A DNA stretch of 64,000 nucleotides from Chitinophaga pinensis (GTDB taxonomy: Bacteria > Bacteroidota > Bacteroidia > Chitinophagales > UBA10324): positions 9,432 through 73,431 of the forward strand of contig CAMDDP010000003.1 of the NCBI GenBank assembly GCA_945892775.1, written 5' to 3'. Below the pieces are notes generated by a model. The model was given only the letters and a program-made list of their open reading frames with translations. It did not search any database and was not told the DNA's origin. This document shows positions 17,481-55,174 of this stretch, one piece after another; position 1 is the first letter of the stretch, and the number at the start of each line of letters is the position of its first letter. A program made the translations under genes and the position numbers.

Positions 17481-18500
17481 ATGATTGAATTAGGTTTGCA
17501 AAAGTATATGAAACAAGATTTTAAAGCAGGAGAAAAAGTAACACTCATTCACATGAATGAGACAGCAATCGTAACTCGCATTGCCAATGGAATGATTTAT
17601 GTAAATTTGGATGGAGATGAAATACCTGTTTACCCTGAAGACATTACACTTATACAGGGCGCAAACAGGCCAACCGATCGCAGGGAATTTCGCCCTCGCG
17701 AAGAACAAAGATCAAAAGAAAAAGTTCCCATCAGTCTTCTGGTGTTAAAAGAAAGAGGGTTACTCTTAATAATGGAGCCATTTATTGATCAGGAAAACAA
17801 ACCAGCACTTCAGGTTTTTATTCAAAATGGATTTCAGTTCGCCGTTCATTACAATATCATCCTTGATTTTTCGGATGGAAAAGATTTCTCTGAAAATGGT
17901 TTGTTAGCGCCGAAGACAAAAAAACAACTATTCCCTTTTCAAGAAGACAAACTAAACGACAAGCCAAATATTTATTTGAGTGCATGGCAACAGAAAGGTG
18001 ATGAGAATGAAATTGAGTTACGCATTCGACCTACAGCTCATTTTAAAAAGAAAAGAAAATTTGAAACTTTTCCTAACGAAGTTTTTGTTTATGAAATATT
18101 TAACGAATGGCCGGGAAGAAGATCGGAAGTTGAGCGCCATCACATTTCAAAAAAAGAACTGGAAGTGTTAATGCAAACAAATAAAATTCAGAATTACGAT
18201 AATGCTGATTTGAAAACCGGAGGCATTGAAGAGATTGATTTGCATGCATCCTCATTAGGCATCAATGAAAAATCATTGGCTTCTGGTAAAATTCTAGAAA
18301 AACAATTAACCGCTTTCAAAAAAGTATTGGAAAACGCCATACAAAATAAACGCGAACGATTAGTTGTAATTCATGGCTACGGAAAAGGAAAATTAAAAAA
18401 TGAAGTTTGTAATATTCTCGATGCAGATTATTCATTCCTTCCATATAGAAACGAATATCACCATCGCTACGGGCATGGTGCCACATTCATTGATCTTTGA
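17481..18500 (+). CDS. Smr (MutS2-related) domain protein
   Basis: C-terminal 'EIDLHASSL...ERLVVIHGYGKGKLKNEV' matches the Smr domain. The N-terminal ~240 aa are uncharacterised. Confidence 0.7.
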   Translation: MIELGLQKYMKQDFKAGEKVTLIHMNETAIVTRIANGMIYVNLDGDEIPVYPEDITLIQGANRPTDRREFRPREEQRSKEKVPISLLVLKERGLLLIMEPFIDQENKPALQVFIQNGFQFAVHYNIILDFSDGKDFSENGLLAPKTKKQLFPFQEDKLNDKPNIYLSAWQQKGDENEIELRIRPTAHFKKKRKFETFPNEVFVYEIFNEWPGRRSEVERHHISKKELEVLMQTNKIQNYDNADLKTGGIEEIDLHASSLGINEKSLASGKILEKQLTAFKKVLENAIQNKRERLVVIHGYGKGKLKNEVCNILDADYSFLPYRNEYHHRYGHGATFIDL

Positions 18501-18502
18501 AA

Positions 18503-18910
18503 TAACTGCTGCGGGGAAGATTGTCGCCTCAATTAATTTTGGGGAGGAAAGTCCGGACAGCATAGCGCGCCGCACCACCTAACAGGTGGAACTTCATTGA
18601 GAAATTGATGAAGGATAGCAAGTACCACAGAAAATAACTACCAGCTGAAGTTTTTACTCCGGTCGGAAAAGATGAAAACGGGAGGTAAAAGCTCCCGGTG
18701 ATTGATTGCAAAATCTTTCACGGGTAAACCTTGCGGGCTGAAAGGCCAAATAAATTCTGTTCAAGAGTTGCTCGCTCTTTCTCCAACGAAAGTTGGAAGC
18801 AGAACGGGTTGGCTGCTCGATTTCGGTTGCGAAACCGAAACCAGATAAATGACAATGCTTCTGATGAAAATCAGAATACAGAATCCGGCTTATGCACCCG
18901 CAGCAGTTAT
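18503..18910 (+). ncRNA. rnpB: RNase P RNA, bacterial type A
   Basis: Universal P4 elements 'GAGGAAAGTCCGGAC' (18544-18558) and 'ACAGAATCCGGCTTA' (18878-18892). P1 pairing is 'aactgctgcggg' with 'cccgcagcagtt'. Ends are approximate to +/-5 nt. Confidence 0.9.
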
Positions 18911-18982
18911 TTTTATTAATGGAATAAAATTTATTTTTGGAATTATAGCAATAAGAAATTGAATTATTTAATTTTTATAAGC

Positions 18983-19429
18983 TCATTTTATTTGCACTCC
19001 ATCTGCTTTGAAAGCAACTTTATCATGAGAAGAATCTTTTAACATAATCTCATCATTTGACTGGCTCTTATCAAGTTGAATTTGGTTTAATTCAACCTCT
19101 GTTGTTGTATCTAAGTAAGAATATCCATGAATAAAAACTGTTTTCCCTTCAATGTCTTTGGGCACTGAAAATTTCTTATCCCAATCAACAAAAATCTGTT
19201 CCCCATTTCCAGCATCCAGTTTCATCCAACACCCTTCGCCTTGGCAAACTGCGCTTACGGTACCTTTCACTATCACATCTTCACCTGATGAATTTGAGAT
19301 TAATTGGTCAACTGAAATTGCCTCTGTGGAATCAACAGCAAGGCCAAAATGGTACTGTTTTCTAAATTCGCATGAAGAAAATAATCCTGAAATTAAAACT
19401 GCCAACAAGATTCTTTTCATACTGATCAT
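18983..19429 (-). CDS. DUF4920-like lipoprotein
   Basis: Lipobox 'LFSSC'. 'VKGTVSAVCQGEGCWMKL' is a pattern I associate with DUF4920 proteins. Confidence 0.5.
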   Translation of the reverse strand: MISMKRILLAVLISGLFSSCEFRKQYHFGLAVDSTEAISVDQLISNSSGEDVIVKGTVSAVCQGEGCWMKLDAGNGEQIFVDWDKKFSVPKDIEGKTVFIHGYSYLDTTTEVELNQIQLDKSQSNDEIMLKDSSHDKVAFKADGVQIK

Positions 19430-19546
19430 TTTTTACAAAGAAAGAAACACAGCCTCAATCCAAAGAATTTATAAACTGACAGATATATGTTGGAACAACT
19501 TAAATCTCTATTTCTATTTTAGCGCCGCGATAAAAAGCATAACCCA

Positions 19547-20257
19547 ATGGGAAGAATATTTCAAACAAGAAAGGCTACAATTTTTGCGCGCAACGATCGT
19601 GTTGCAAAGGCATTTACACGAATAGGAAAAGAGATTGCTATTGCTGTTAAAGCTGGTGGTGGTATTCCTGAAAATAACTCCCGTTTAAAAACGGCAATTA
19701 ATAATGCAAAGGGTGTAAACATGCCTAAGGAAAAAGTGGAAGCTGCTATAAAGCGCGCAACTACCAAGGACGATAAAGGATTGCAAGAACAGGTGTATGA
19801 AGGTTATGCGCCACACGGTGTAGCTATGATGATTGAATGTGCAACTGATAATACTACACGCACAATATCAAATCTGCGTGTAATTGTGAGCAAAGGTGGT
19901 GGAACAATTGGTTCTCAGGGTTCGGTTGGGTTTATATTCGATCGTAAAGGTGTTTTTAGAATTGAGAAAACAAAATTGAATCTCGATGAAATGGAATTGG
20001 ATTTAATTGATTCGGGGGCTGAAGAAATTGATACTGATGAAGATGATATTGTTATTCATACTGCATTTACTGATTTTGGTAAAATGCAAAAATTTTTAGA
20101 AGGGAAATCAATAGTCGCAAAAAGTTCGGAACTACAACAAATTCCAAATAATTATAAAGAAGGATTAACTGAAGATCAGGAAAATCAGGTATTGCAACTC
20201 ATTGCCAAATTAGAAGACGATGATGATGTGCAGCAGGTTTTTCATAATTTGAAATAA
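19547..20257 (+). CDS. YebC/PmpR family DNA-binding transcriptional regulator
   Basis: 'RAKIVAFLV'-type N-terminus ('KATIFARNDRVAKAFTRIGKEI') and 'YEGYAPHGVAMMIECATDNTTRT' are conserved YebC blocks. Confidence 0.9.
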   Translation: MGRIFQTRKATIFARNDRVAKAFTRIGKEIAIAVKAGGGIPENNSRLKTAINNAKGVNMPKEKVEAAIKRATTKDDKGLQEQVYEGYAPHGVAMMIECATDNTTRTISNLRVIVSKGGGTIGSQGSVGFIFDRKGVFRIEKTKLNLDEMELDLIDSGAEEIDTDEDDIVIHTAFTDFGKMQKFLEGKSIVAKSSELQQIPNNYKEGLTEDQENQVLQLIAKLEDDDDVQQVFHNLK

Positions 20258-20344
20258 GAATTATTGTTAGTTGAGTGTTCATGGTTGTTAGTATAAAATT
20301 TCAACTTTAACTCTTGTAAGACTGAAATTGTCGAAGTGCACAAC

Positions 20345-21499
20345 TCACAATTCCTTCAACTTATCAATTGCCTTTTGCTTGTAAGCAGATTCTATTTTAG
20401 ATAAATCGGCTAATACAGTTTTGGCTTTATCTTTTTTATTCAGGTTAATTAACAGAAATGCTTTTTCCCACATGGCCTGTGGCTTTAATTCATTATTCAA
20501 TTTTATCAGCTCATCTAATTTCTCAATTGCTTTTTCTTTTTCACCTGATGATTTGTACTGCATGGCCTGATTAAATAAATCAGATGGAACATCTATTGAA
20601 ACTGAATCAGAAATTGATTGGTCTCTTGATTTTGTATAACCGCCACTTGGAATTTTGTCTTTTTCATTTTTGTTTTTTTTACCTGATGTGATTTCTACTT
20701 CTTCCTGGTTCAACGAGGGTGACAATTGCGGCGATGAACCTGAAGAAAAAGAATTGCTGGGTGAAAAACTTAACTGGTCGGTAGTTAGTGTAACAGTCTG
20801 AGGCGATGTAATTGATTTGGTTGAAACATCCAGATCATTTTTCTGATCAAGCTTATCTCCAACCAATGGTTCGTAATTTTCTTCAGCGGTTTTATTTACA
20901 GTCGGTGGAGAAACATCGACGACCAAATTGTCATTCGATATTGACTGATTTTCATCTTTTGGAAGATTTTTAAAAACAAATCCTCCAACTGGTTGTTGGC
21001 CTGGTACTTTTACATCTTCAATTGGTTTTCCATTACCAACAGGCTGTGTAACCTTGATTTTTTCTTTATCATAAATGGAATCTTTTTTATAATGAATACC
21101 GTCCACTGATTTCTCCAAATCCGATTTTTTCTCTGCAAAATTTTGTGCAACCTCCTGATGTTTTTGATTCATGAATTCATTCAGAAAAAATGCACCGATA
21201 ATTACAACAATAAGTACTGCAGCAACAGCCATAGAGCGCTTCATCATCATAATTAACACCGGATTTTCTTTTAATCTTCTGCTGATTCTGTTATCAATTT
21301 TAACGAGCGACTCATTTGTTTCAGTCTCGGATAACAACCTTAAACCATCAATTGCTTCTGTACACAATTCGCAATCTACCAGATGCAATTCCACTCGACG
21401 CAAACGATTGCCTGCTAACCTGTCGGCCAAGTAATCCTGCATTTCATTACGGGACAGGCAGAGCTGCTCCTGCATTATATTTTTAAACTCGTCACTCAT
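20345..21499 (-). CDS. anti-sigma factor (zf-HC2), single-pass membrane protein with Ser/Pro-rich linker and C-terminal TPR-like region
   Basis: 'HLVDCELCTEAIDG' is the H-x3-C-x2-C zinc motif. TM helix 'MAVAAVLIVVIIGAFFL'. Overlaps the sigma gene by 8 nt (ATGAGTGA). Confidence 0.65.
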   Translation of the reverse strand: MSDEFKNIMQEQLCLSRNEMQDYLADRLAGNRLRRVELHLVDCELCTEAIDGLRLLSETETNESLVKIDNRISRRLKENPVLIMMMKRSMAVAAVLIVVIIGAFFLNEFMNQKHQEVAQNFAEKKSDLEKSVDGIHYKKDSIYDKEKIKVTQPVGNGKPIEDVKVPGQQPVGGFVFKNLPKDENQSISNDNLVVDVSPPTVNKTAEENYEPLVGDKLDQKNDLDVSTKSITSPQTVTLTTDQLSFSPSNSFSSGSSPQLSPSLNQEEVEITSGKKNKNEKDKIPSGGYTKSRDQSISDSVSIDVPSDLFNQAMQYKSSGEKEKAIEKLDELIKLNNELKPQAMWEKAFLLINLNKKDKAKTVLADLSKIESAYKQKAIDKLKEL

Positions 21500-22073
21500 T
21501 GTTCTGACTTAACATTATTTTCAAATTTCTTTTTCCATTCTGAATAAAACTTTTTACCTCCAGCATTGAATATCCTGTTTGATCCACTATTTCCTGATAC
21601 GATTTTTCCTGGAGATAAAACAATTCCACACAAATTTTTTGTCCTTCTTTTAATTGCATCAGTGCACCATTCATCTCTTCTAGTTTTGCGTTTTTCCAGT
21701 TTTCATTATCAAGAGGCGAAGATTGTTCGTTTTCCATAATCACAGGAAAATCTTTATTCATTTCCTTCTGATTCTTAAAATGTGATTGCTGTTTACGCAA
21801 AAGGTACAGGCAATGATTTTTTGCAACAGTATGAATCCAAAATTTGAATTCGTTCACTTCATATTGGTGTAACTGCACCAATAATTTTTCAAAAACCTGC
21901 ATCGTGGCATCTTCTGCCTCATCACGATTTTTTAAATACTTCATGCAAACTCCAAGAACCAAGTGCACGTATCGCTGATACAACACCGCAATCACCTGCT
22001 TATCCGCCGTGCTTCGATAATGTAACAACAATTGCTTGTCATCTAATTCATTTATGGAGTGAACTTTTTCCAA
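21492..22073 (-). CDS. RNA polymerase ECF-type sigma-70 factor
   Basis: Region 2 'LYQRYVHLVLGVCMKYLKNRDEAEDATMQVF' and region 4 'ELFYLQEKSYQEIVDQTGYSMLEVKSFIQNGKRNL'. The only available start is TTG at 22073, directly after an in-frame stop. Confidence 0.8.
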   Translation of the reverse strand: MEKVHSINELDDKQLLLHYRSTADKQVIAVLYQRYVHLVLGVCMKYLKNRDEAEDATMQVFEKLLVQLHQYEVNEFKFWIHTVAKNHCLYLLRKQQSHFKNQKEMNKDFPVIMENEQSSPLDNENWKNAKLEEMNGALMQLKEGQKICVELFYLQEKSYQEIVDQTGYSMLEVKSFIQNGKRNLKIMLSQNNE

Positions 22074-22627
22074 TCAGGTTTGAAAAATAGTTGTTGAAAG
22101 GAAACCTTCCTAATTAGATCCAAAACAAATCTTAAACTCACGCCGTGTCTCACCGCAGTAGTGCAAAAAACGTGGGGTGAACACGATGGGGGAGAAATCA
22201 TGGCAATTATCTGAATGCATTCTAAAACAGAAAAATGGTTTCTGTTGTAGTTCAAAGCAAAAATAAATGGAATAAATCCGACTTCGATAAAAATGAAAAT
22301 AATTCCGCTAATTTCTTCCCACCTCCATCCAACAATTAAAAGAATTAGAAACTGATGAAAAGTATTGCTGGAATGCAAATTATTCTCGGGAGCCAGTGAA
22401 ATATCTTTTGCATTGAAAATTATTTTTATAAATCAAATTAGCAGCAAATTTTTTGAAAATGATTGTTGTCAGATTTGGAGTTGCAACAATCGAAAACCTG
22501 CATGCTATGTGACCCTAATTGTTTTAAATTTTAATTACCCCATTAAATCACTGCCGGAACAATTATTTCATTATCTCATTTATGGAATCCCGCAACCTTC
22601 TGCATCTCCTATCCAAATTCATTATTT

Positions 22628-25600
22628 ATGAAAACGAAAATCAATTACACACTGCCTCTGCTGATTTCAGTTGCACTGTTTGCTTTCAGTTTGCTGCAGG
22701 CAACTGGAGTTATTAATGTTGTTACTGACCCGAAGCTCGATACGCTCGAGCAAAAAATTTCGGCGCGCGAAAAAGATTATCCCGAAGACCGGATTTATCT
22801 CACCACCAACCAACCCATTTATTCGCCGGGCGAACAAATCTGGTTCAGCGCTTTTGTGCGCAACGGAAGCACGCTTAAGCCCTCACTAAAAAGCGATATC
22901 GTGCACATCGAATTAATTAATCCTGCCGGAAAAGTTCAGCAAACGATGAAGCTGATTTCGCGCGATGGTTATTGTTCGGGCGATTTATCCATTGCGGCAT
23001 CGTTGCCCGGCGGTTATTACAAACTGCGTGCTTACACCAACTGGATGCTGAACGAAAGCGACTCAGCAGGATATACAAAAGAAGTCCTCATATCGAAAGT
23101 GATATTGCCACGATTGAAAATGAATCTCACATACGATAAAGACAGTTACACTAAAGGCGAAGAAGTGCTCGCAAAATTTTCAGCAAGCACCAATCAGAAT
23201 CTTCCGCTTACTGCAAAAAGTTTTTCGTATGAAATTCAAATGGACGGAACGAAAATAAAAGAGGGCACATCCACCACCGGAAATGATGGAGTGATGTTCG
23301 TGCGTTACAATCTCCCAGAGAAAATCAAATCGAAAGATGCGCTGATGATTGTGAAACTCGATTTCGAAGGAACCACTGAAAGTATTTCGCGCAGCATTCC
23401 TATTTCGATGAGCAATTTATCTCTCCATTTTTTTCCTGAAGGCGGTGATATGGTTGACGGATTGCCTGGCAGAATTGCATTCAGAGCGAAGGATGAATTC
23501 GAAAAAGCAATTTCAGTGGAAGGAATTGTAAAAGATTCGAAAGGAAATAAAGTCGCCGACTTCACCACTTTCCATAAAGGCATGGGTGCATTCACCATGA
23601 TGCCGGTGAAGGGAGAAACTTACACTGTTACACTCACCAAGCCCGAAGGAGTTGAAAAAACTTTTTCGTTGCCCAATGCAGTGGCTGCGGGTTTCAATGT
23701 GGAACTGAGCACAGAGAAAAATGCAGTGAACGCAACACTCCGCTCCACCGGAACATTTAAAGTTTACACTGTTGCAATGGTTCGTGGCAAAGTGTGTTAC
23801 AGTAATTCTCAATTGGTTTCAGAAGGAGAAAATCACATCGAGATTCCGACTGCGAATTTCCCGATGGGAGTTGCGCAGGTTACTTTCTTCGACCAGCAAA
23901 TGATTCCGCGTTGCGAAAGATTGGTGTTTGTGAATCGCGAGCGACAACTGAATGTCTCAATCAAAACCGATAAAGATGAATATCAAACACGCGATCGTGT
24001 GCATGTAACAGTGCGCACCACGGATGAAAATGGAATTCCGGTTCCTGCAATTCTTTCGGTGAAAGCAGTGAACGACCAACTCATGAATTTCGCTGACGAT
24101 AAATCAGGAAACATTTTAACAGCCATGCTGCTCGAAGGTGATTTGAAACAAAAAGTGGAAGAATCGAATTTTTATTTCGACAAAGCAGAAGCGAAAGGCG
24201 CAGAAGCTCTTGACTATTTACTGATGACAAGCGGATGGAGAAGATTCAGTTGGAAGCAAATTCTGAAAGATGAAAAACCTATCGTGCGCTACAATGGAGA
24301 AAAAGCAAATGTGATAATCACCACTTATGATGGATACACCGGAAAAATTTTGCCGAACACTAAAATCAAAATCGGAAATAGCAGAGCAGAATATTTCACT
24401 GATGCAAACGGAAAAGTAATTTTCAACAAACTGAATTTGTATGAACCCGTCAACATCACTGCCAGCTTAGATGATTACACGCCTGCAACAACACAAATTG
24501 TTGATTACAACGAAAACCTCGGCATCTGGCTATACAATCCGAAGAACGAGGTTTACATGTATAAAGATGCTCCGGATATGCGCGAAGAAAATATTCAGCT
24601 CGCACCACAAATGAATTTTGCAGCACCAATGGGCGGAATGGTAATGGATGAAGTGATGATGATTGGAAACGGAAAAGCCGGGAAGAAAAACAAGGGCTTC
24701 GACGCTGAAGGAGACATGGTAGTGAATGAAATAAAATTCACGCCGCCTATTGAAACAAAAACAGGTGCAAACAAAGACGAGAACAAAAACGGCGAACAAG
24801 TGATTGACCAACGCTTACTCGGAATTCTTGCAGCCGATTCTATTGCAGTAAAAGATCTGAACAACAATCAGGCATACTACCGCACACGCGAGTTCCCGCA
24901 AAAATCCTATTCATCAAAAACTCCGGAGAAGAGAACCGACTTTGCTTCCACACTTTATTTCAACGGCGCAGTGGAAACCGATTACAGCGGCAAAGCAGAT
25001 TTCACTTTCACCACTAACGATTTAATTTCTTCCTTCCGGATTATTGCCGAAGGAATCGGCGATGATGGATTAGTTGGCAGAGGAGAAAAATTATTCTTCA
25101 CTCAATTACCATTCAGCATCTCTGCAAAAATCCCCGGCACACTTACAGGTGGCGACCAAATGCAATTGCCCATTGTGCTGAAGAACAACACACTCCGCAA
25201 TCTCACCGGAAAATTATCTGTTCACTTCTCACAAAAAATATTGAATGGAAATGTTGGCGATACATCCATTGCCATTGCCGCACAAAGCACAAAAGTTATT
25301 TACTGGAACATGAGCGCACACGACACCATTGCGAACGACACCATTCAACTCGCATTTGTAACCGAAGGACTCAGCGACGAAACCACAGTGCCTGTTGCCG
25401 TTGACTCCAAAGGATTTCCGGTGCAGCAATCATTCAGCGGTCGCGACCTTGAGAAAAATTTCAAGTTCAGTTTTAAAGATGCACTAAAGGGAAGTTTAAA
25501 AGTTTCTCTCACTGCTTATCCATCAACTGTCAGCACATTGCTGGGTGGTTTGTCAGGATTGTTGCGCATGCCCGGCGGATGTTTTGAGCAAACAAGCATG

Positions 25601-26998
25601 AGCTCTTATCCTAATGCCATGATCATGAATTATCTGAAAGCCAGTGAGAGTGGCGATGAAGCAACTTATGCGCACGCAAAAGAATTATTGAAAGCCGGTT
25701 ATGAGAAACTCGTAACATTTGAAACAAAGCAAAAAGGTTACGAGTGGTTTGGCTCTGCACCCGGGCACGAAGCACTCTCAGCTTATGGGTTGATGCAGTT
25801 TGCTGATTACAAAAAATTATATGCCGGTGTGGATGAAGGAATGGTTACACGAACTGCCGACTGGCTTTTCGCGCGGCGCGATGGCAAGGGCGGATACCAG
25901 CGCAATGATAAAGCCTGCGATTATTTCGGTCGCGCCAGTGAAGACATCACAAACCTTTACATCACTTATGCGCTCAGCGAAGCGGGTTACAAAAATCTGC
26001 AGCAGGAAGTTGACTATGCATACACGACAGCAAAAGCCAGCGACGATAATTATTTGATTGCATTAGCGGCCAACACACTTTACAATATGAAAGACAACAC
26101 ACGCGGCGATGCACTGCTCACAAAAATTCTGGGCAAACAAAAAGAAGACGGTAGCTTCGATGGAAAAACACAAAGCATTGTTTGCTCCGGCGGTCAGTCG
26201 CTCACCACCGAAACATCATCGCTTTCGTTGCTCGCCATTCTTGCCAGCGCTAATCCAAGCTATCAGGCAACACAAAAAGTTGCCGAGTTCCTCACCAAGC
26301 AGCGCAGCGGCTATGGCGAATGGGGAAACACACAGGCAACTATACTCGCACTCAAGGCGCTCAGCAAATTCAGTTTGTTCAACAAGCGCGCACCCGAGAG
26401 CGGCACCATTCAGTTTCTGCTCGATGATGTGCAGATTGCCGAAGTCAACTTTGCCGCAGGCGATAACAAACCCGTGGAAATAAAAGGTCTCGAAAAATTC
26501 ATAAACGAAGGCGACCACGATTTAAAAATCCGTTACAAAGGTTGCAAGGTCGCCATGCCTTACAGCATCAGCATCACTTACAACATTGCCACACCCAAGA
26601 GTGCGAAAGATTGCAATGTGAGTTTGAACACATCGCTCGCCACCAACACCTGCAAAGTCGGTGACAATGTGCGGCTCAGTGTTACACTCAAAAATGAAAC
26701 TGCTGGCGGCTTACCTTCTACCATGGCCATTGTAGGAATACCAGCGGGCTTGAGTTTGCAGCCGTGGCAGTTAAAAGAGCTGAAAGACAAAAAAGAATTC
26801 GACTACTTCGAAATCATGAACAACAACCTCGTGCTCTACTACCGCCAGATGAAACCAAGTGAAGTGATAGAATTAAATTTCGATTTAAAAGCCGAAGTGC
26901 CCGGCACATTTGAACCGCAGGCAAGCGACAGCTACTTGTATTACACAAGTGAGTTTAAATGTTGGACCAAGGCGGAAAAAATTACCATAACAAAATAG
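22628..26998 (+). CDS. alpha-2-macroglobulin / thioester-containing protein (TEP) family, secreted
   Basis: Signal peptide without Cys. MG-like 'YLTTNQPIYSPGEQIWFSAFV'. Thioester motif 'PGGCFEQTSM' (Cys985, nt 25580-25591). A2M_comp-like 'QRSGYGEWGNTQATILALKAL'. C-terminal receptor-domain-like 'NNLVLYYRQMKPSEVIELNFDLKA'. Confidence 0.8.
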   Translation: MKTKINYTLPLLISVALFAFSLLQATGVINVVTDPKLDTLEQKISAREKDYPEDRIYLTTNQPIYSPGEQIWFSAFVRNGSTLKPSLKSDIVHIELINPAGKVQQTMKLISRDGYCSGDLSIAASLPGGYYKLRAYTNWMLNESDSAGYTKEVLISKVILPRLKMNLTYDKDSYTKGEEVLAKFSASTNQNLPLTAKSFSYEIQMDGTKIKEGTSTTGNDGVMFVRYNLPEKIKSKDALMIVKLDFEGTTESISRSIPISMSNLSLHFFPEGGDMVDGLPGRIAFRAKDEFEKAISVEGIVKDSKGNKVADFTTFHKGMGAFTMMPVKGETYTVTLTKPEGVEKTFSLPNAVAAGFNVELSTEKNAVNATLRSTGTFKVYTVAMVRGKVCYSNSQLVSEGENHIEIPTANFPMGVAQVTFFDQQMIPRCERLVFVNRERQLNVSIKTDKDEYQTRDRVHVTVRTTDENGIPVPAILSVKAVNDQLMNFADDKSGNILTAMLLEGDLKQKVEESNFYFDKAEAKGAEALDYLLMTSGWRRFSWKQILKDEKPIVRYNGEKANVIITTYDGYTGKILPNTKIKIGNSRAEYFTDANGKVIFNKLNLYEPVNITASLDDYTPATTQIVDYNENLGIWLYNPKNEVYMYKDAPDMREENIQLAPQMNFAAPMGGMVMDEVMMIGNGKAGKKNKGFDAEGDMVVNEIKFTPPIETKTGANKDENKNGEQVIDQRLLGILAADSIAVKDLNNNQAYYRTREFPQKSYSSKTPEKRTDFASTLYFNGAVETDYSGKADFTFTTNDLISSFRIIAEGIGDDGLVGRGEKLFFTQLPFSISAKIPGTLTGGDQMQLPIVLKNNTLRNLTGKLSVHFSQKILNGNVGDTSIAIAAQSTKVIYWNMSAHDTIANDTIQLAFVTEGLSDETTVPVAVDSKGFPVQQSFSGRDLEKNFKFSFKDALKGSLKVSLTAYPSTVSTLLGGLSGLLRMPGGCFEQTSMSSYPNAMIMNYLKASESGDEATYAHAKELLKAGYEKLVTFETKQKGYEWFGSAPGHEALSAYGLMQFADYKKLYAGVDEGMVTRTADWLFARRDGKGGYQRNDKACDYFGRASEDITNLYITYALSEAGYKNLQQEVDYAYTTAKASDDNYLIALAANTLYNMKDNTRGDALLTKILGKQKEDGSFDGKTQSIVCSGGQSLTTETSSLSLLAILASANPSYQATQKVAEFLTKQRSGYGEWGNTQATILALKALSKFSLFNKRAPESGTIQFLLDDVQIAEVNFAAGDNKPVEIKGLEKFINEGDHDLKIRYKGCKVAMPYSISITYNIATPKSAKDCNVSLNTSLATNTCKVGDNVRLSVTLKNETAGGLPSTMAIVGIPAGLSLQPWQLKELKDKKEFDYFEIMNNNLVLYYRQMKPSEVIELNFDLKAEVPGTFEPQASDSYLYYTSEFKCWTKAEKITITK

Positions 26999-27020
26999 TG
27001 TTACAGCATAGTTAAAATAA

Positions 27021-27087
27021 AATGGAGAGACTTGCCACACTGAGCTTGTCGAAGTGTTGTCAAAGCATTGTCTCTCCATTTTTATTT
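27021..27087 (+). terminator. long-loop hairpin plus T-run after the A2M-like gene
   Basis: Perfect 11-bp stem aatggagagac (27021-27031) / gtctctccatt (27070-27080), a 38-nt loop, then 'tttattt'. Confidence 0.55.
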
Positions 27088-27154
27088 GGGCGTGCCACCA
27101 TTTTTTGAATACAAAAAATGCTGTCGTGCTTTCCCTGCAATATTTTTTTAATTA

Positions 27155-27189
27155 CAAAAAAAGCCGCAGTATTAGTGCGGCTTTTTCTT
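27155..27189. terminator. bidirectional rho-independent terminator
   Basis: Stem aagccgca (27161-27168) / tgcggctt (27176-27183), flanked by an A-run upstream and a T-run downstream. Sits between convergent genes. Confidence 0.65.
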
Positions 27190-27204
27190 TCATTTAAATT
27201 TGCT

Positions 27205-27387
27205 TCATGCAGCAATTTTTTTATTCCTGAACATTAAAAACACTCCTATGATACCATGTAATACCCCCGCACAAAGTGCAGTATTGGCTCCAGTAGGATA
27301 TTTATGTTCTAATGCCATTAGTGTTCCGAATAAAATAAATATTATGCAGATTGAAAAGCAGTAAATCATTCCTAATTTATTTTTCAT
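27205..27387 (-). CDS. small hypothetical membrane protein (two TM helices)
   Basis: 60-aa ATG ORF with 'IYCFSICIIFILFGTLMAL' and 'ALCAGVLHGIIGVFLMF'. A terminator lies immediately downstream. No family recognised. Confidence 0.4.
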   Translation of the reverse strand: MKNKLGMIYCFSICIIFILFGTLMALEHKYPTGANTALCAGVLHGIIGVFLMFRNKKIAA

Positions 27388-27561
27388 GGTTGTTTAATTT
27401 AAAGTGAATGCAACAACAGAATCCTCGGTAATCTCTTCTGATGAGGCAAATAATTTTCTGACTATTGTTTATTCAAATTAAATTGTTGGAGAAACATTTT
27501 TAGTGAGTCGGTGTTCCTCCTCTCGAGCCGCTGCAATTGTCTTAATCAGTATGAGCAACAA

Positions 27562-27652
27562 GATTTAAAGATGAATAGGATTATGCTTTTTTTATTTTTT
27601 ATTTTTTGTATTCATCCTGCTAATCTTCAAATCATAAAATCCTGATTCAGAT
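27562..27652. repeat. imperfect inverted-repeat (hairpin) element with T-rich loop
   Basis: Arms gatttaaagat (27562-27572) and atcttcaaatc (27623-27633) pair 10/11. Inner aggat/atcct also pairs. Loop 27585-27610 is T-rich. The tail 'aaatcctgattcagat' resembles dispersed Bacteroidota intergenic repeats I recall, unverified. Confidence 0.4.
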
Positions 27653-27839
27653 ATTTTTTCTTGCGCTCTCAAACTTAACTTTTCCTTCAAACAAAAACGC
27701 TTAATAAAATCTTTCTGTTCAGAGCTTAACCACTCAGAATATAAAAAAAATAGGTTTGACTTAAATAGAAATGGAGAGGCGCTAGCGTCTAATTTTTTGT
27801 GCTAATAAAAAATATTTTAGTCGAACAGAAATAGAAAAA

Positions 27840-28238
27840 TTAAATAACTACAGTGTTGAGTTTATCAACTGATAATGGTTTTACTAAAAAATTAATTATC
27901 TGTGGAAATTCTTTTGCCCTTCCATAATCCTGTTCATCTAAAGTGGAGGAGAGCATTATTACTTTTGGCTTGGTGTTAATTTCGGGAGCGAGCTTAACAT
28001 ACTCATCCATAAATCCGAAACCATCAATGATGGGCATTCTAATATCCAAAAAAATAACATCGGGTACTTTACTCAAATCGTTAGCAACAACAGTTTTAAA
28101 ATATTCCAACGCATCAACACCAGATGGCATCACAGCAATATTTTGACCGAACCCTGCAATTTCAATCAAACGCTCATGCATCACATTGTTAATCTCATTA
28201 TCATCAATGAGCAAAATATTTTCAAATCTTGCTGACAT
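27840..28238 (-). CDS. stand-alone response regulator receiver domain (CheY-like)
   Basis: 'ILLIDDNEINN', 'DVIFLDIRMPIIDGF' (phospho-acceptor Asp) and 'FLVKPLSVDKL'. 132 aa with no output domain. Confidence 0.85.
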   Translation of the reverse strand: MSARFENILLIDDNEINNVMHERLIEIAGFGQNIAVMPSGVDALEYFKTVVANDLSKVPDVIFLDIRMPIIDGFGFMDEYVKLAPEINTKPKVIMLSSTLDEQDYGRAKEFPQIINFLVKPLSVDKLNTVVI

Positions 28239-41355: not shown

Positions 41356-41360
41356 TGTAG

Positions 41361-50848: not shown

Positions 50849-52972
50849 ATGAATAAATTTTTTGGTGTTTTTCTTTTTGCTTTTTTCATCATTCAAAACA
50901 GCGGTGCTCAAAATATTTCCACTGGAAATGATACCACTATTTGTCAGGGAAGCGGAATGACACTTCATGTTACAATTGATTCTGCTGGCGCTATTACACA
51001 ATTAAATTTGCCCGATGATACATATAGCCTAGTGGTAGACTTAGGGTTTTCCTTTAATTATTATGGCAATGTCTTTACACAGGTATTACTTTCAACCAAT
51101 GTATATATCTATTTTAATATTGGTGAAGCTAGTCAATATTCCGTATGGCCTATCGGAAATGCCATACCTACAACTGCTCCAGGTACACCCCAAAATGCAA
51201 TTATGGGTCCATGGCATGATGTTGATCCGTCAGTCGGTACTACTGGAATTATGAGTTATGCAACTTTTGGTTCTGCACCTAATAGGTACTTTGTTTTTAA
51301 TTTTTGTAATGTTCCTATGTTTTCGTGTAACAACTTATTATTTACAGGTCAAATAATTCTTTACGAAGGAAGTAATATTATCGAAACTCATATTACTGAA
51401 AAAGTAGTTTGTAGTAGCTGGAATGTAGGAGCTGCAATACATGGATTACATGATTCTAATGGTACTTTGGCATCAGTTGTTTTGGGAAGAAATTTCCCAA
51501 CGGTTTGGACAACAACTAATGAAGGCAAACGATTTACCCCTGATGCAATATTTTCAACTTATACAATTGATTCTATTTTGTTTGCTCCTGTACCAATGCT
51601 TGGCAACTTACAGTGGACTGACTTAGCCGGTAATTTTATTAGTAACGATCAGGATGTAACTATTAATCCAACCCAGGCCACAACTTATGTAGTAAGCATG
51701 ACAGATTGTGGTGTTGGATCCGATACAATTACTGTTTTCGTTTCTGAATTTGATACAGTCACTACTTACTTGAATCCACAATGCCCAAATAGTTTTGATG
51801 GATTTATTGAAGCCACATGCACTGGAACAGGTCCTTTTCTTTTTATCTGGAAGAATCAAGCCGGTGTAATTATTCAAACAACTACTTCATCTTCCGGAAA
51901 TGATTCTTTATTAAACTTAGGTCCTGGTACTTATACTATGATTGTTACAGACTCAATTGGGTGTGTAAAACAGCATTCCTTTAGCCTAACAGCTGCAACT
52001 TATAACGCAAATTTTTCATATACTCCAATTATAGCTTGTAAAGGATCCCCTCTAAATTTTAATAATACATCAACAGGAAGTCCAACTTCTTTCAACTGGG
52101 TTTTTGAAGGGGGTGGAAGTTCTAGCCAGGAAAATCCAACTCATACTTTTAATTCAGCCGGAAATTTTAATGTGACTTTTATTGTTTTCTATCCGGGCGG
52201 TTGCAGTGATACTTCTATTCAAACTATTTTGATCCATGAATTAATTAAGGCTGATTTTGATTGGGCACCTCAAAATATTTGTGAAGTTGATACTGTACAA
52301 TTTACTGATAATTCAACCTTATCGCCAATAAGTTGGGCATGGTCTTTTGGAGATGGTTCTTATGGCTCAGGAGCCTCACCCACCCATCAATATACACAGG
52401 GGGATTATATAGTTCAGATGGTAGCATTTGATAGTTTATGCGGTATTGATTCAATTACTAAAAACCTTACTGTTTATTATCAACCTTATCCTGAATTAGG
52501 AAATGATACTTCTGTTTGCAAATATGAATTGCTTTTTATTGATGCTGGATATCCAGGAACAACCTACCAATGGTCAACGGGTGAAACCTCGCAACTAATT
52601 ACACCTCCATTGCAAGATCAGGACACCTATTATACAGTAATTGTAAATAACTTTGGTTGCTTGGGTTATGACACCTTACTTGCTACAATTAATTGTGATG
52701 CGGTCATGCCTTCTGGCTTTTCGCCTAATGGCGATAATGTCAATGATATTTTCAGGCCGCGTGGATTTAGAGTTACACAATATGACATGACAATTTTCAA
52801 CCGATGGGGCGAAATTATTTTTCAAATTAATTCTCCAGATATTGAAGATGGCTGGGATGGAAAATATAATGGTGAAGATGCTGAAATCGGTGTTTATATC
52901 TATTTTATGAATGCTACTTTTATAAATGGAGAGAAAAAATCAATCACTGGAAATGTTACATTGTTAAGATAA
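50849..52972 (+). CDS. large secreted protein: conserved N-terminal domain + PKD-like repeats + T9SS type-B (gliding-motility-associated, CHU_C) C-terminal domain
   Basis: Signal peptide. PKD-like 'FSYTPIIACKGSPLNFNNTSTG...WVFEGGGSS...HTFNSAGNFNVTFIV' occurs twice. C-terminal 'MPSGFSPNGDNVNDIFRPRG...IFNRWGEIIF...WDGKYNG...GVYIYFM'. Confidence 0.75.
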   Translation: MNKFFGVFLFAFFIIQNSGAQNISTGNDTTICQGSGMTLHVTIDSAGAITQLNLPDDTYSLVVDLGFSFNYYGNVFTQVLLSTNVYIYFNIGEASQYSVWPIGNAIPTTAPGTPQNAIMGPWHDVDPSVGTTGIMSYATFGSAPNRYFVFNFCNVPMFSCNNLLFTGQIILYEGSNIIETHITEKVVCSSWNVGAAIHGLHDSNGTLASVVLGRNFPTVWTTTNEGKRFTPDAIFSTYTIDSILFAPVPMLGNLQWTDLAGNFISNDQDVTINPTQATTYVVSMTDCGVGSDTITVFVSEFDTVTTYLNPQCPNSFDGFIEATCTGTGPFLFIWKNQAGVIIQTTTSSSGNDSLLNLGPGTYTMIVTDSIGCVKQHSFSLTAATYNANFSYTPIIACKGSPLNFNNTSTGSPTSFNWVFEGGGSSSQENPTHTFNSAGNFNVTFIVFYPGGCSDTSIQTILIHELIKADFDWAPQNICEVDTVQFTDNSTLSPISWAWSFGDGSYGSGASPTHQYTQGDYIVQMVAFDSLCGIDSITKNLTVYYQPYPELGNDTSVCKYELLFIDAGYPGTTYQWSTGETSQLITPPLQDQDTYYTVIVNNFGCLGYDTLLATINCDAVMPSGFSPNGDNVNDIFRPRGFRVTQYDMTIFNRWGEIIFQINSPDIEDGWDGKYNGEDAEIGVYIYFMNATFINGEKKSITGNVTLLR

Positions 52973-53035
52973 TTAAAAACAATAAAAATTAAAGAGAAAT
53001 TAATTTGTAATTTTATCCTCAATAACACTTAATAA

Positions 53036-55174
53036 ATGAAAAAAACAATAGAATTAATTCTGTTCGTTAGTTCGTTCTTACTGATTAATCAATCAGCTAA
53101 AGCTCAAATTTTTAGTATTGGAAACGATACAACTATTTGCCCCGATGAACCATTGACATTTACATCAACAGTTGGTGGCGTACCATCAGGTGGCATTCAA
53201 TTATTGAATTTGGGTGACGACATATTCAGTGGGGTAATTCCAATTGGGTTTCCATTTAATTTTTATGGAAATATTTACTCCGATGTCATACTTTCAACTA
53301 ATTTTTATATTCAGTTTGATCTTGCTGGTGCAGGAGCTTATTCTCCATGGCCAATTAGTGCTGCAATTCCATCACCAACCAACCCTATGAATTCAATAAT
53401 GGGTCCTTGGGAAGATATTTACCCCCCTGCTGGTGGTGTTATAAAATATGGCATTTGTGGGGTTGCTCCTTTTCGAGTTTTTTTATTTGACATGGACAAT
53501 GTTCCAATGTTTAGCTGTAATGCACTTCTTTTTACTGGTCAAATTCAATTATACGAAACAACAAATGTGATTGAAATTCATTTGACCAATAAACCATTAT
53601 GCCCAGGTTGGAACAGTGGAAGAGCTATTGAGGGGGTTCACAATTCATCTGGAAGTCTGGCTGATTGGGTCCCTGGAAGAAATTTTCCTTCTCAATGGAC
53701 TGCTAATAATGATGGATATAGATTTACTCCAAATGGTGCCACCTATACTGTAGCATCAATTCCATTTGCTGCAATTCCATTAGGAGCAGTTGGTGGAATT
53801 ACTTGGTATAACAGCAATGGTGGAGTAATTGGAAATTCAAACACCCTTTTTGTAAATCCTCCGTCTAGCACATTTTATTCCGCCACATTATTTACTTGTG
53901 CCGGGCAATTTACAGATACCGTTAATGTTACTGTAAACCCTGTTATAGCTGATAGCTCTTTTCAGAACTCAACTTGCTTCAATGTATTTGATGGGTTTTG
54001 TATTGCTGAGGGTTTAAATGCAGGTCCTTATACTTATACCTGGTATGATTCCACTGGTATTGCTGTACAAACACATTTTGGTATAAATGGACCAGATACA
54101 TTAAACTATTTAGGTGCGGGAAATTATTCTGTACACTTAATAAATAGCACTGGTTGTAAACGAATTATCAATTACACTCTTGTAACAAATACTTTTCAGG
54201 CAAATTTTATAATTAATCCAAGTCCAGCCTGCGAGGAATCAATGGTAACTTTCACTAACACAAGTGTTGGAATTCCAATTATATACGACTGGAGTTTTGG
54301 CGATCCTGCAAATCAAGTTTCCATTCTACCAAGCCCATCAATAGCTTTTTATGATACAGGATTTTTTACAATAACTATGATTGTAACTGTCAATGGTGGA
54401 TGTAAAGATACAGCAACACAAGTTTTACAATTATGGCCAGCTCAAGTAGGTGCCTATATAGTAACACCATTAACAGTTTGTGAAAATCAACAATTAACCT
54501 TTAAAGATAGAAGTTATGCCTATCCCGTTTCGTGGGAATGGAGTTTTGGTGATACTTCAGCCAATGGTAATGGAGCAACCGTTCTTCATTCCTATCCTAA
54601 TGCAGGTCAGTATAATGTTTCATTAATCGTTACTGATAGTTTATGTGGAATTGATACTGTGGCCGGAATTATAAATGTAAATGAATATCCGATTACCAAC
54701 ATAGGTAATGATACGGGCGTTTGTAAAGGAACCCAATTAATTTTAGATGCAGGAGTTCCGGGTGTTGTTTATACCTGGTCAACAGGCGCATCCACACAAA
54801 CAATTACTGTATCACCACAACAAGCAACTGAATACAATGTTACTTTAAACAATCACGGTTGCACCTTTAATGACGCTATTGAAATTGCAATTTTATGCGA
54901 GCTATATATACCCAATGCCTTTTCGCCAAATCGAGATGGAGTTAACGACTTATTTATTCCATTTGGAACCGAAGTAACTCATGTTTTTATGCGAGTTTAT
55001 AATCGTTGGGGTCAAATGGTTTACACCGGATCAAGCGACAAATTAGACAAAGGCTGGAATGGATTTTTTGGTGCCGAGGAAGCTCCTATTGGTGTTTATA
55101 CTTATGTTATAAAAGCGACATTTATTAATAATCAAACAAAGGAATACAAAGGAAATGTAACCTTAATCCGCTAA
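53036..55174 (+). CDS. paralogue of the preceding gene (same N-terminal domain, PKD-like repeats, T9SS type-B C-terminal domain)
   Basis: Collinear with 50849-52972 over its full length. C-terminal 'IPNAFSPNRDGVNDLFIPFG...VYNRWGQMVY...WNGFFG...GVYTYVI'. Confidence 0.75.
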   Translation: MKKTIELILFVSSFLLINQSAKAQIFSIGNDTTICPDEPLTFTSTVGGVPSGGIQLLNLGDDIFSGVIPIGFPFNFYGNIYSDVILSTNFYIQFDLAGAGAYSPWPISAAIPSPTNPMNSIMGPWEDIYPPAGGVIKYGICGVAPFRVFLFDMDNVPMFSCNALLFTGQIQLYETTNVIEIHLTNKPLCPGWNSGRAIEGVHNSSGSLADWVPGRNFPSQWTANNDGYRFTPNGATYTVASIPFAAIPLGAVGGITWYNSNGGVIGNSNTLFVNPPSSTFYSATLFTCAGQFTDTVNVTVNPVIADSSFQNSTCFNVFDGFCIAEGLNAGPYTYTWYDSTGIAVQTHFGINGPDTLNYLGAGNYSVHLINSTGCKRIINYTLVTNTFQANFIINPSPACEESMVTFTNTSVGIPIIYDWSFGDPANQVSILPSPSIAFYDTGFFTITMIVTVNGGCKDTATQVLQLWPAQVGAYIVTPLTVCENQQLTFKDRSYAYPVSWEWSFGDTSANGNGATVLHSYPNAGQYNVSLIVTDSLCGIDTVAGIINVNEYPITNIGNDTGVCKGTQLILDAGVPGVVYTWSTGASTQTITVSPQQATEYNVTLNNHGCTFNDAIEIAILCELYIPNAFSPNRDGVNDLFIPFGTEVTHVFMRVYNRWGQMVYTGSSDKLDKGWNGFFGAEEAPIGVYTYVIKATFINNQTKEYKGNVTLIR

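Follow-up and report, generated by a model that had tools for sequence, protein, structure and literature searches.

Is a thioester protein of animal type under the control of a sigma factor in a bacterial genome, and did the protein and its regulators arrive there together? The question is raised by a 64,000-nucleotide stretch of Chitinophaga pinensis DNA (assembly GCA_945892775.1, contig CAMDDP010000003.1, positions 9,432 to 73,431; hereafter the window), in which genes for an extracytoplasmic function (ECF) sigma factor and an anti-sigma-like protein stand back to back with a gene for a protein resembling alpha-2-macroglobulin (A2M) and the thioester-containing proteins (TEPs) of animals. 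A first-pass annotation had proposed that the sigma/anti-sigma pair controls the thioester gene and that the three genes, described as foreign-looking, were acquired together. Our analysis supports the first proposal and not the second. With a probability that we put at roughly 0.6, a resident sigma/anti-sigma pair faces a target A2M gene, and the A2M cassette alone (approximately 22579–27160) is xenologous from, or has been exchanged with, relatives of intermediate GC content (mid-GC).

Window genes were taken from a listing of open reading frames (ORFs) and from Pfam and NCBIfam scans. The elements of the locus, with strand and the basis of each assignment, are:

19547–20257 (+), yebC; ORF listing
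20345–21499 (-), anti-sigma-like ORF, 384 residues; translation and alignment of seven orthologues
21492–22073 (-), ECF sigma ORF, 193 residues, TTG start; Pfam Sigma70_r2 and Sigma70_r4_2, TIGR02937
21712–21739 (-), copy of the promoter motif within the sigma ORF, TTATGGAAAACGAACAATCTTCGCCTCT; motif search
22580–22607 (+), putative promoter of ECF type, TTATGGAATcccgcaaccttctGCATCT (reading GGAAT-N16-TCT), which begins 48 nt ahead of the A2M start codon; motif search
22628–26998 (+), A2M/TEP-like thioester protein, 1456 residues; Pfam, PDB profile search, Foldseek
24518–24877 (+), hypervariable bait-like region, residues ~631–750; conservation profile
25577–25591 (+), thioester motif GCFEQ, residues 984–988; translation
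25871–25880, GC-rich run GCGCGGCGCG inside the A2M-like gene, quoted in the first-pass annotation and located here
27158–27186 (+), intrinsic terminator AAAAAGCCGCAGTATTAGTGCGGCTTTTT, bidirectional form; stem and T run

The layout is as originally described: the anti-sigma and sigma ORFs overlap by 8 nt (ATG...TGA), and the A2M-like ORF is divergent from sigma over 554 bp. The A2M gene is monocistronic: its transcription unit has a promoter motif to itself and is closed by a strong terminator (a stem of 11 pairs, 5 of them GC, and a T run).

Conservation of the sigma–A2M arrangement

About 11 Bacteroidota lineages share the order of anti-sigma, sigma and divergent A2M, in surroundings of unrelated genes. 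A tblastn search with the sigma and anti-sigma of the window against 80 A2M-family loci (labelled L and a number, with WIN for the window) placed a sigma/anti-sigma pair directly upstream and divergent in L005, L006, L009, L010, L014, L019, L065 and L067, and 4.4 kb downstream of A2M in L016; context look-ups added the trio in L086 (58% A2M identity), L091, L093 and the P0004 contig of the closest outgroup (GCA_041442895.1; 64%). The A2M proteins of trio-bearing lineages are only 40–64% identical and their neighbouring genes are different. Next to the window A2M lie sigma/anti-sigma, yebC and a response regulator/histidine kinase; elsewhere gyrB, an epimerase, yebC or others stand outside the trio, and because these outer genes differ among loci the trio itself is the conserved unit. 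An anti-sigma-like gene also comes after sigma at each of the orthologous loci examined.

A2M and sigma also run in parallel in their identity to the window, from close to distant relatives (93/90, 64/59, 58/57, 57/58, 54/54 and approximately 43/41–47%). In a neighbour-joining tree of A2M, the deep clade that holds the window is sigma-linked throughout where context is known, and the window clade nests within it. In a second large clade the other sigma-linked loci are basal, and the derived part carries a small secreted gene downstream instead. Full-text literature searches, including Bacteroidetes and Flavobacterium, returned no account of an A2M-like gene that is coupled to an ECF/anti-sigma pair.

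The small downstream gene was seen at 34 loci (e.g. L020:14473–14835; also L016), about 50 nt 3' of A2M and on the same strand, and marks the derived subclade in which sigma adjacency has been lost. It encodes a secreted protein of approximately 120–166 residues with a conserved NDPRNPxCPCHK motif and no Pfam match. Neither the window nor other members of its clade have this gene, and a search of window positions 26999–27840 found no ORF of at least 20 residues of that character. In L007, the most divergent member of the window clade, a 51-nt stretch (295–345) resembling the 5' part of sigma is left upstream and the 1.4 kb available holds no sigma ORF, which suggests that sigma was lost or displaced while the A2M cassette and its promoter motif were retained.

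A shared, putative promoter motif

Alignment of the regions upstream of A2M gave TTTATGGAAT-N12-TGCATCT-N3-T-N3-AAA, and the form TTATGGAAT-N13-GCATCT lies 46–75 nt before the ATG of the A2M family members that carry it, always on the gene strand. Searched for as a position-weight matrix, the motif was located within 200 nt upstream of A2M at 64 or more of the 79 loci, the majority of which have no adjacent sigma gene. It is bipartite, strand-specific and non-palindromic, with constant spacing, and is unlike the Bacteroidota housekeeping -7 box TAnnTTTG (PMC9723704). The pattern TTATGGAA-N14-GCNTCT has two matches in the 64-kb window against none expected, one before A2M (22580–22607) and one inside sigma (21712–21739).

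The intragenic copy falls in the linker between regions 2 and 4 of the sigma factor. Counted from the start of sigma it is at +336 nt, and it precedes the ATG of anti-sigma by about 215 nt. Of 15 sigma ORFs, 14 contain a copy, located between +324 and +372 (random windows reached a maximum score of 4.9), and the internal motif also occurs in three sigma orthologues of approximately 50% identity without an adjacent A2M. One 4.5-Mb contig carries both genes unlinked and 2.9 Mb apart, a sigma at 3.0 Mb with the internal motif and an A2M at 0.13 Mb with the motif 69 nt upstream. The linker peptide encoded over the motif, compared among 120 sigma homologues, conserves ME in at least 90% and HL in 80%, with the five residues between them at 20–50%, the pattern that would be expected of a DNA element lying in a loosely constrained linker. 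The best matches outside A2M upstream regions are almost only within ORFs of this same sigma family. The recurring gene order and the conserved motif together lead us to conclude that this sigma family has the A2M-like gene as a conserved target, in line with the control proposed in the first-pass annotation, and we infer that the sigma recognises the motif. The intragenic copy most likely drives the anti-sigma gene, which would give negative feedback without positive autoregulation.

High-scoring copies of the motif also precede an operon with RnfD/NQR2-like and DUF2330 genes (L023:5108–5135(-) and L033:6996–7023(-)) and a CarboxypepD_reg-vWA-YfbK_C protein (L037:5779(+)); the RnfD-like/DUF2330 operon and the YfbK-like vWA protein are candidates for further members of the regulon.

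Composition and origin of the A2M cassette

GC content at third codon positions (GC3) was compared with that of 44 other window ORFs (mean 0.264, sd 0.036, maximum 0.351). The A2M gene departs strongly from this reference (GC 0.444, GC3 0.469, z = 5.7), and the tetranucleotide distance of 23001–27000 reaches z = 10.9 against the window background, so that the foreign look ascribed to the big gene holds. As for its two companions, "intermediate" is an apt word for sigma, whose GC3 of 0.376 is the top value of the remaining genes, but a foreign composition is not confirmed: overall sigma GC is 0.347 (z = 0.1), the anti-sigma gene is ordinary (GC3 0.312, z = 1.3; GC 0.358), and the 4-kb window 18001–22000, with yebC, anti-sigma and sigma, has a tetranucleotide z of 1.6. 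Sigma orthologues have GC3 of 0.37–0.46 in ten other genomes, independent of genome GC and of A2M adjacency, the raised value being found also in loci without an adjacent A2M (L092, 0.423; also L088 and L090); because orthologues share it everywhere examined, it is a property of the gene family and not a signal of transfer. The codon bias of sigma favours G-ending codons, the A2M gene is shifted to C-ending ones, and neither sigma nor anti-sigma has that shift. The spacers that flank the A2M gene are host-like (GC 0.336 and 0.319), which leaves the A2M ORF and about 49 nt upstream as the only atypical part.

This departure is not a trait of the family. Among 62 family loci with enough flanking ORFs, the GC3 of A2M differs from that of its own flanks by a median of -0.007 (sd 0.06). 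A2M normally matches its flanks, and neither the family nor the module is therefore intrinsically GC-rich. Only the window clade, which consists of low-GC Chitinophagales metagenome-assembled genomes (WIN, L005, L006, L007, L008 and L011; 79–92% identity), departs from this, by +0.17 to +0.21, together with L055 (+0.12). More remote relatives carry the module with fully native composition.

The limits of DNA homology within the clade coincide with the compositional ones. Homology starts at 22579, just 5' of the promoter motif, and ends between 26965 and 27162, the latter being its extent with L008, within the terminator. The sigma–A2M spacers share no homology and measure 463, 922, 1051 and 2158 nt in four genomes; the distance from A2M to the response regulator varies as well (0.8, 3.7 and 7.4 kb), and these spacers carry assorted low-GC accessory genes. 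All four clade genomes sampled keep yebC, anti-sigma and sigma in synteny. In L092 (yebC 95% and sigma 84% identical) the 20 kb available contain no A2M gene next to sigma, and L011 (83% A2M identity) has the cassette in another context with no sigma gene. Codons raised in A2M are TTC, CGC, GGC, CTC, AGC, GTG and CCG, with AAA and GAA unchanged. The synonymous-codon likelihood is -1.52 to -1.56 under the usage of mid-GC Bacteroidota, -1.62 under that of better-expressed host genes and -1.72 under the host background; the closest usage is that of mid-GC Bacteroidota genomes and of the A2M orthologues in them (L014, L082, L010, L086), and sister lineages have flank GC3 of 0.45 (L086), 0.41 (L010) and 0.37 (L009). 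Bounded homology, stable neighbours and codon usage together indicate a native sigma pair and an A2M cassette that alone is atypical; the simplest and most likely reading of the cassette is a xenologous copy from a mid-GC relative.

In the clade relatives the flanks of A2M are a hot spot for accessory genes (L005:7082–14496, L093:1–4500, L006:354–2512, L007:5845–9597). They encode a Y1_Tnp/RAYT-like transposase, AbiTii, a DUF4160/DUF2442-like pair, a nucleotidyltransferase and a small Kunitz-like protein, all with host-like low GC3. Similarities of the neighbouring genes are also discordant, the window yebC being 95% identical to that of L092 and 80% to those of L005/L093, and sigma 84% and 90%, respectively, which suggests a recombination breakpoint between yebC and sigma.

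Alternatives to the proposed model of a transferred cassette and a resident regulator

Several results weigh against a foreign cassette. No donor allele was found in a mid-GC context, all alleles of at least 79% identity being in low-GC genomes. A2M GC3 stays at 0.47–0.50 in all six diverged lineages, with no sign of amelioration, and polarised synonymous singletons in A2M run at about 1:1 (GC→AT 110–120, AT→GC 92–103) where host-like mutation pressure would give about 2.5:1; this polarity test is weak evidence because its flank-gene control gave 48 vs 97 and parsimony is biased in skewed composition. Four-fold-site divergence in A2M (WIN–L005 0.28, WIN–L091 0.24, L005–L091 0.19) is 2–3 times below that in sigma, anti-sigma and yebC (0.34–0.57), and A2M groups {L005, L091} against WIN exactly as yebC does. 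For the lack of a GC→AT excess and the low four-fold divergence, selection on composition is at least as good an explanation as one old transfer; the low divergence may mean either that the cassette was exchanged among species after their split or that its synonymous sites are constrained. Vertical inheritance of A2M together with sigma, its high GC3 kept by a gene-specific force such as selection on synonymous sites for burst expression upon induction, or GC-biased gene conversion at a recombination hot spot, would account for these patterns as those of constrained synonymous sites. It would likewise suit the co-varying A2M and sigma identities, the nesting of the window clade among sigma-linked A2M genes, the hot spot of variable accessory genes around A2M and the resemblance of its NNC preference to that of the host AdoHcyase, ABC-F and ATCase genes, a host reference of three moderately expressed genes in a window without ribosomal-protein genes. 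We nevertheless regard it as rather unlikely, though it has to be taken seriously: the four- and six-fold choices of A2M (CGC, GGC, CTC, GTG, CCG) match mid-GC orthologues, whereas better-expressed host genes use GCT, GGT/GGA, GTT/GTA and CCA, and since A2M orthologues of AT-rich lineages are as AT-rich as their flanks (L060, L039, L017, L038), the family has no general need for GC-rich codons.

Entry of sigma, anti-sigma and A2M as one foreign block, the original suggestion, is very improbable. The high sigma GC3, the different contexts of the module across lineages and the discordant sigma/yebC similarities, with their hint of recombination near sigma, could be taken as its traces, but that GC3 is a family constant, the other compositional measures of the pair are host-like and lack the C-ending shift of A2M, the pair keeps its synteny with yebC in 4/4 clade genomes, homology of the cassette begins at 22579 and not at the anti-sigma end, and the locus has no integrase or tRNA genes nearby and flanking repeats only at chance level. 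The regulatory half of the preferred reading, in which the resident sigma pair controls A2M, has weak points of its own. Of the 62 genome loci for which 2 kb or more of upstream sequence exists, only about 8 have sigma beside A2M, which makes linkage the minority state. The motif was absent from the 250 nt upstream of sigma in 15/15 loci (never above random windows), so the positive autoregulation usual for ECF systems is missing. The promoter remains a putative one, assigned from conservation, fixed spacing, position and the GGAAT-N16-TCT reading, which we take to resemble RpoE-type ECF -35/-10 elements; and protease trapping is attributed to the product by homology. Were adjacency to carry no regulation, the motif being the site of another regulator or a variant housekeeping promoter and the sigma pair controlling other genes, the many family members without an adjacent sigma and the motif-free region before sigma would both follow. 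We think this slightly more improbable still than joint entry, given a motif of such fixed architecture at 46–75 nt before the ATG, its dissimilarity from the housekeeping TAnnTTTG -7 box (PMC9723704) and the near confinement of its other best matches to the ORFs of this sigma family, which is hard to explain without this sigma.

The thioester protein

The A2M-like protein matches Pfam TED_complement (E=3.5e-27, 95.7 bits against a cut-off of 22), MG2 (E=2.6e-15, 57.0 bits, cut-off 32.8) and the A2M domain (E=3.5e-6, 27.2 bits, cut-off 21); A2M_recep (E=1.3e-3, 19.8 bits) falls under its cut-off of 21.7. MG2 occupies residues 55–139, A2M 776–863, TED 968–1248 and a putative C-terminal receptor-binding/MG8-type domain 1365–1446; at this end the profile alignment reaches the C-terminus of human A2M and the structure model closes with a beta-sandwich. 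The signal peptide (residues 1–25, MKTKINYTLPLLISVALFAFSLLQA) contains no Cys and no lipobox, and the protein is for that reason probably soluble and not a membrane-anchored lipoprotein. Residues G984, C985, F986, E987 and Q988 are invariant in family alignments of 25 and 34 sequences, GCFEQTS being constant family-wide, and the conservation profile shows residues 631–750, at the bait position of A2M, to be hypervariable and rich in indels. By analogy with the family, the protein would be periplasmic and would trap proteases covalently after cleavage of the bait.

The family profile finds human A2M in the PDB at 1.9e-43, and also CD109, TEP1, A2ML1, C4 and C3, at an identity to animal proteins of approximately 16–19%; Salmonella SaA2M and E. 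coli YfhM reach only about 1e-9 over some 300 residues with either the single protein or the family profile. An AlphaFold model of residues 760–1456 (pLDDT 80.8) gave Foldseek E-values of 1e-37 to 1e-30 and TMq of about 0.6 to native C3, A2ML1, A2M, CD109 and TEP1, with activated C3b fitting less well (TMq 0.35); the model thus assigns an MG7-CUB-TED-MG8 fold in the native arrangement. A search of 5.8 billion proteins returned one cluster at 100%, relatives at 90, 83, 64, 58, 56 and 54% and hundreds at 43–46%, all of approximately 1450–1500 residues and, where the source was named, from Bacteroidota metagenome-assembled genomes. Scanning one genome per GTDB species confirmed at least 574 family loci; a family so broad within Bacteroidota does not reflect a recent animal-to-bacterium transfer. 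Many members carry an inserted CarboxypepD_reg-like domain, and some database entries tag members as "YfaS".

The sigma and anti-sigma factors

The sigma protein matches Pfam Sigma70_r2 (E=1.3e-12) and Sigma70_r4_2 (E=2.3e-6), and these are its only regions, 2 and 4. It scores 77.8 bits with TIGR02937 (sigma70-ECF; cut-off 42.9) and reaches none of the NCBIfam equivalog or subfamily cut-offs; by these profiles it classifies as an ECF (group 4) sigma factor. It has more than 5,600 homologues, the closest likewise of 193 residues.

The anti-sigma protein has a cytoplasmic N-terminal anti-sigma domain, a single hydrophobic span (residues ~88–106), a low-complexity, hypervariable outer linker (~110–330) and a conserved C-terminal TPR-like module of about 80 residues (weak TPR matches); orthologues terminate in TPR or TonB_C domains. 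The zf-HC2 label given to it earlier fits in so far as H39-x3-C43-x2-C46 is invariant in seven orthologues and two orthologues score 22.5 bits against the zf-HC2 cut-off of 22.2, but the window protein itself has no Pfam zf-HC2 match. Both ends of the protein are conserved and the linker diverges: it is 59–71% identical among genomes whose sigma is 84–91% and A2M 92–97% identical, and between L005 and L091 it is 59% identical though their yebC is 99% identical. One may speculate that the outer linker is the site at which the signal is read, possibly by proteolysis.

A possible mechanism

Taken together, these features would allow the following sequence of events. The anti-sigma, to judge from its sequence, would tether sigma at the membrane through its Zn-type N-terminal domain until an extracytoplasmic signal acts on its outer part and sets sigma free. 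Sigma would then bring RNA polymerase to the promoter at 22580–22607, as motif conservation and position suggest, for transcription of A2M up to the terminator at 27158–27186, while the intragenic motif copy would allow resynthesis of the anti-sigma and shut the response off. The exported product would trap attacking proteases, bait cleavage exposing the Cys985–Gln988 thioester for cross-linking to the protease, as in the family at large. A bolder version, which we consider doubtful, is an inducible anti-protease "immune" circuit in which the long, disordered and fast-evolving anti-sigma linker is a decoy for foreign proteases that enter the periplasm, its cleavage releases sigma and induces the trap, the intragenic promoter resets the system, and the trap cassette is exchanged between species. 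If true, exchange of promoter-plus-ORF cassettes with a foreign codon signature would explain both the low synonymous divergence and the lack of amelioration.

Relation to known systems

Two classes of bacterial macroglobulin have been described: class 1, a thioester-bearing lipoprotein encoded beside pbpC, and class 2, without Cys and encoded in a six-gene operon (PMC3735191). Class-1 proteins (E. coli ECAM/YfhM, Salmonella SaA2M) have the thioester, are exported through the inner membrane and are presumed to defend the envelope against proteases (PMC3735191, PMC4498604). The window protein shares the thioester with them, but it has no lipobox Cys, is about 200 residues shorter and only weakly similar, and its gene is paired with an ECF sigma/anti-sigma and not with pbpC; no penicillin-binding protein gene was among the recurrent neighbours of A2M in 79 loci. 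Class-2 MagD of P. aeruginosa has no CxEQ thioester and no Cys, and its six-gene operon is under RetS/GacS-RsmA control (PMC3735191). A signal peptide without lipobox Cys and the macroglobulin fold are common to MagD/YfaS and the window protein (PMC3735191), which differs from them in its invariant thioester, in a gene that stands alone or with one small downstream gene, and in an ECF-type promoter. The A2M-like protein thus belongs to neither class: it carries the thioester but lacks a lipobox, and its gene is neither beside pbpC nor part of an operon. The best sequence and fold matches are the metazoan thioester proteins (human A2M, A2ML1 and CD109, insect TEP1, complement C3/C4), which it resembles in length (about 1450 residues), MG domains, a central bait-like stretch, the CUB/TED/C-terminal MG8 layout and the CxEQ thioester. 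Unlike them it is encoded by a bacterial monocistronic gene, with a bacterial signal peptide and GCFEQ instead of GCGEQ, and has the CarboxypepD_reg-like insert in many family members.

The regulatory pair is akin to RpoE-RseA envelope-stress and Zn-binding (ZAS) systems in several respects: a two-domain ECF sigma is coupled in translation to an anti-sigma with one membrane span and Hx3Cx2C, the putative promoter has -35 GGAA(Y) and -10 TCT-like elements about 16 nt apart, and the regulon is small and envelope-related. The putative promoter within the sigma ORF, from which the anti-sigma would be expressed, also has a counterpart reported for E. coli, rseA P3. Unlike those systems, the pair has no motif upstream of sigma and apparently no positive autoregulation, the outer part of its anti-sigma is a long disordered linker with a TPR-like module (TonB_C in orthologues), and its conserved target is a thioester protein.

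The types of parts (ECF sigma, ZAS-like anti-sigma, A2M/TEP protein) are known; what appears to be new is their pairing, the animal-like, soluble, thioester-bearing form of bacterial macroglobulin, and the family-wide promoter motif with wiring for negative feedback only through an intragenic promoter. The regulation of bacterial macroglobulins is poorly understood, and the locus would represent a third form beside the two known classes, closer to animal A2M/TEPs than either and present in hundreds of Bacteroidota species. Its tie to a sigma factor by gene order and a sharp promoter motif gives a directly testable regulon and a simple example of an ECF system that seems wired for negative feedback alone. 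The single-gene compositional island, showing no amelioration and an unusually low synonymous divergence, is for these reasons a clean case in which to ask whether atypical GC always means transfer.

Other features of the window

22052–22378 (-), truncated DUF7670 remnant in the sigma–A2M spacer; Pfam DUF7670 E=5e-7
27205–27387 (-), 60-residue ORF with two membrane helices
31922–32761 (-), glutathione peroxidase domain fused to a Por_Secre_tail type IX secretion sorting domain
50849–55174, second and weaker compositional outlier

The DUF7670 remnant is 58% identical over 64 residues to an intact DUF7670 gene of 125 residues at the same place in L091, and on that similarity is decaying accessory DNA outside the system. 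The 60-residue ORF converges on A2M and shares its bidirectional terminator; its CyanoTRADDas_TM match is weak and below cut-off. No Rfam family was found at threshold, the two weak matches both lying on the terminator.

Imperfect repeats that bracket the trio (20259–20338 against 27031–27056 and 27364–27405) were considered as att sites and rejected because their spacings are unequal (6718 vs 7105) and matches of 21/26 or 24/31 are expected several times by chance in 8.5 kb. The window locus holds no integrase or transposase gene, some relatives having a Y1_Tnp gene nearby, and no tRNA gene lies close to it, the nearest being at 41360.

The peroxidase fusion implies a secreted or surface-bound peroxidase. 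The second outlier (51001–55000: tetranucleotide z = 3.9, dinucleotide z = 3.7) corresponds to two tandem paralogues of about 710 residues with PKD and CHU_C (type IX secretion) domains and an unusually high GC content at second codon positions (GC2 0.43–0.44), and is probably due to the amino-acid composition of these proteins.

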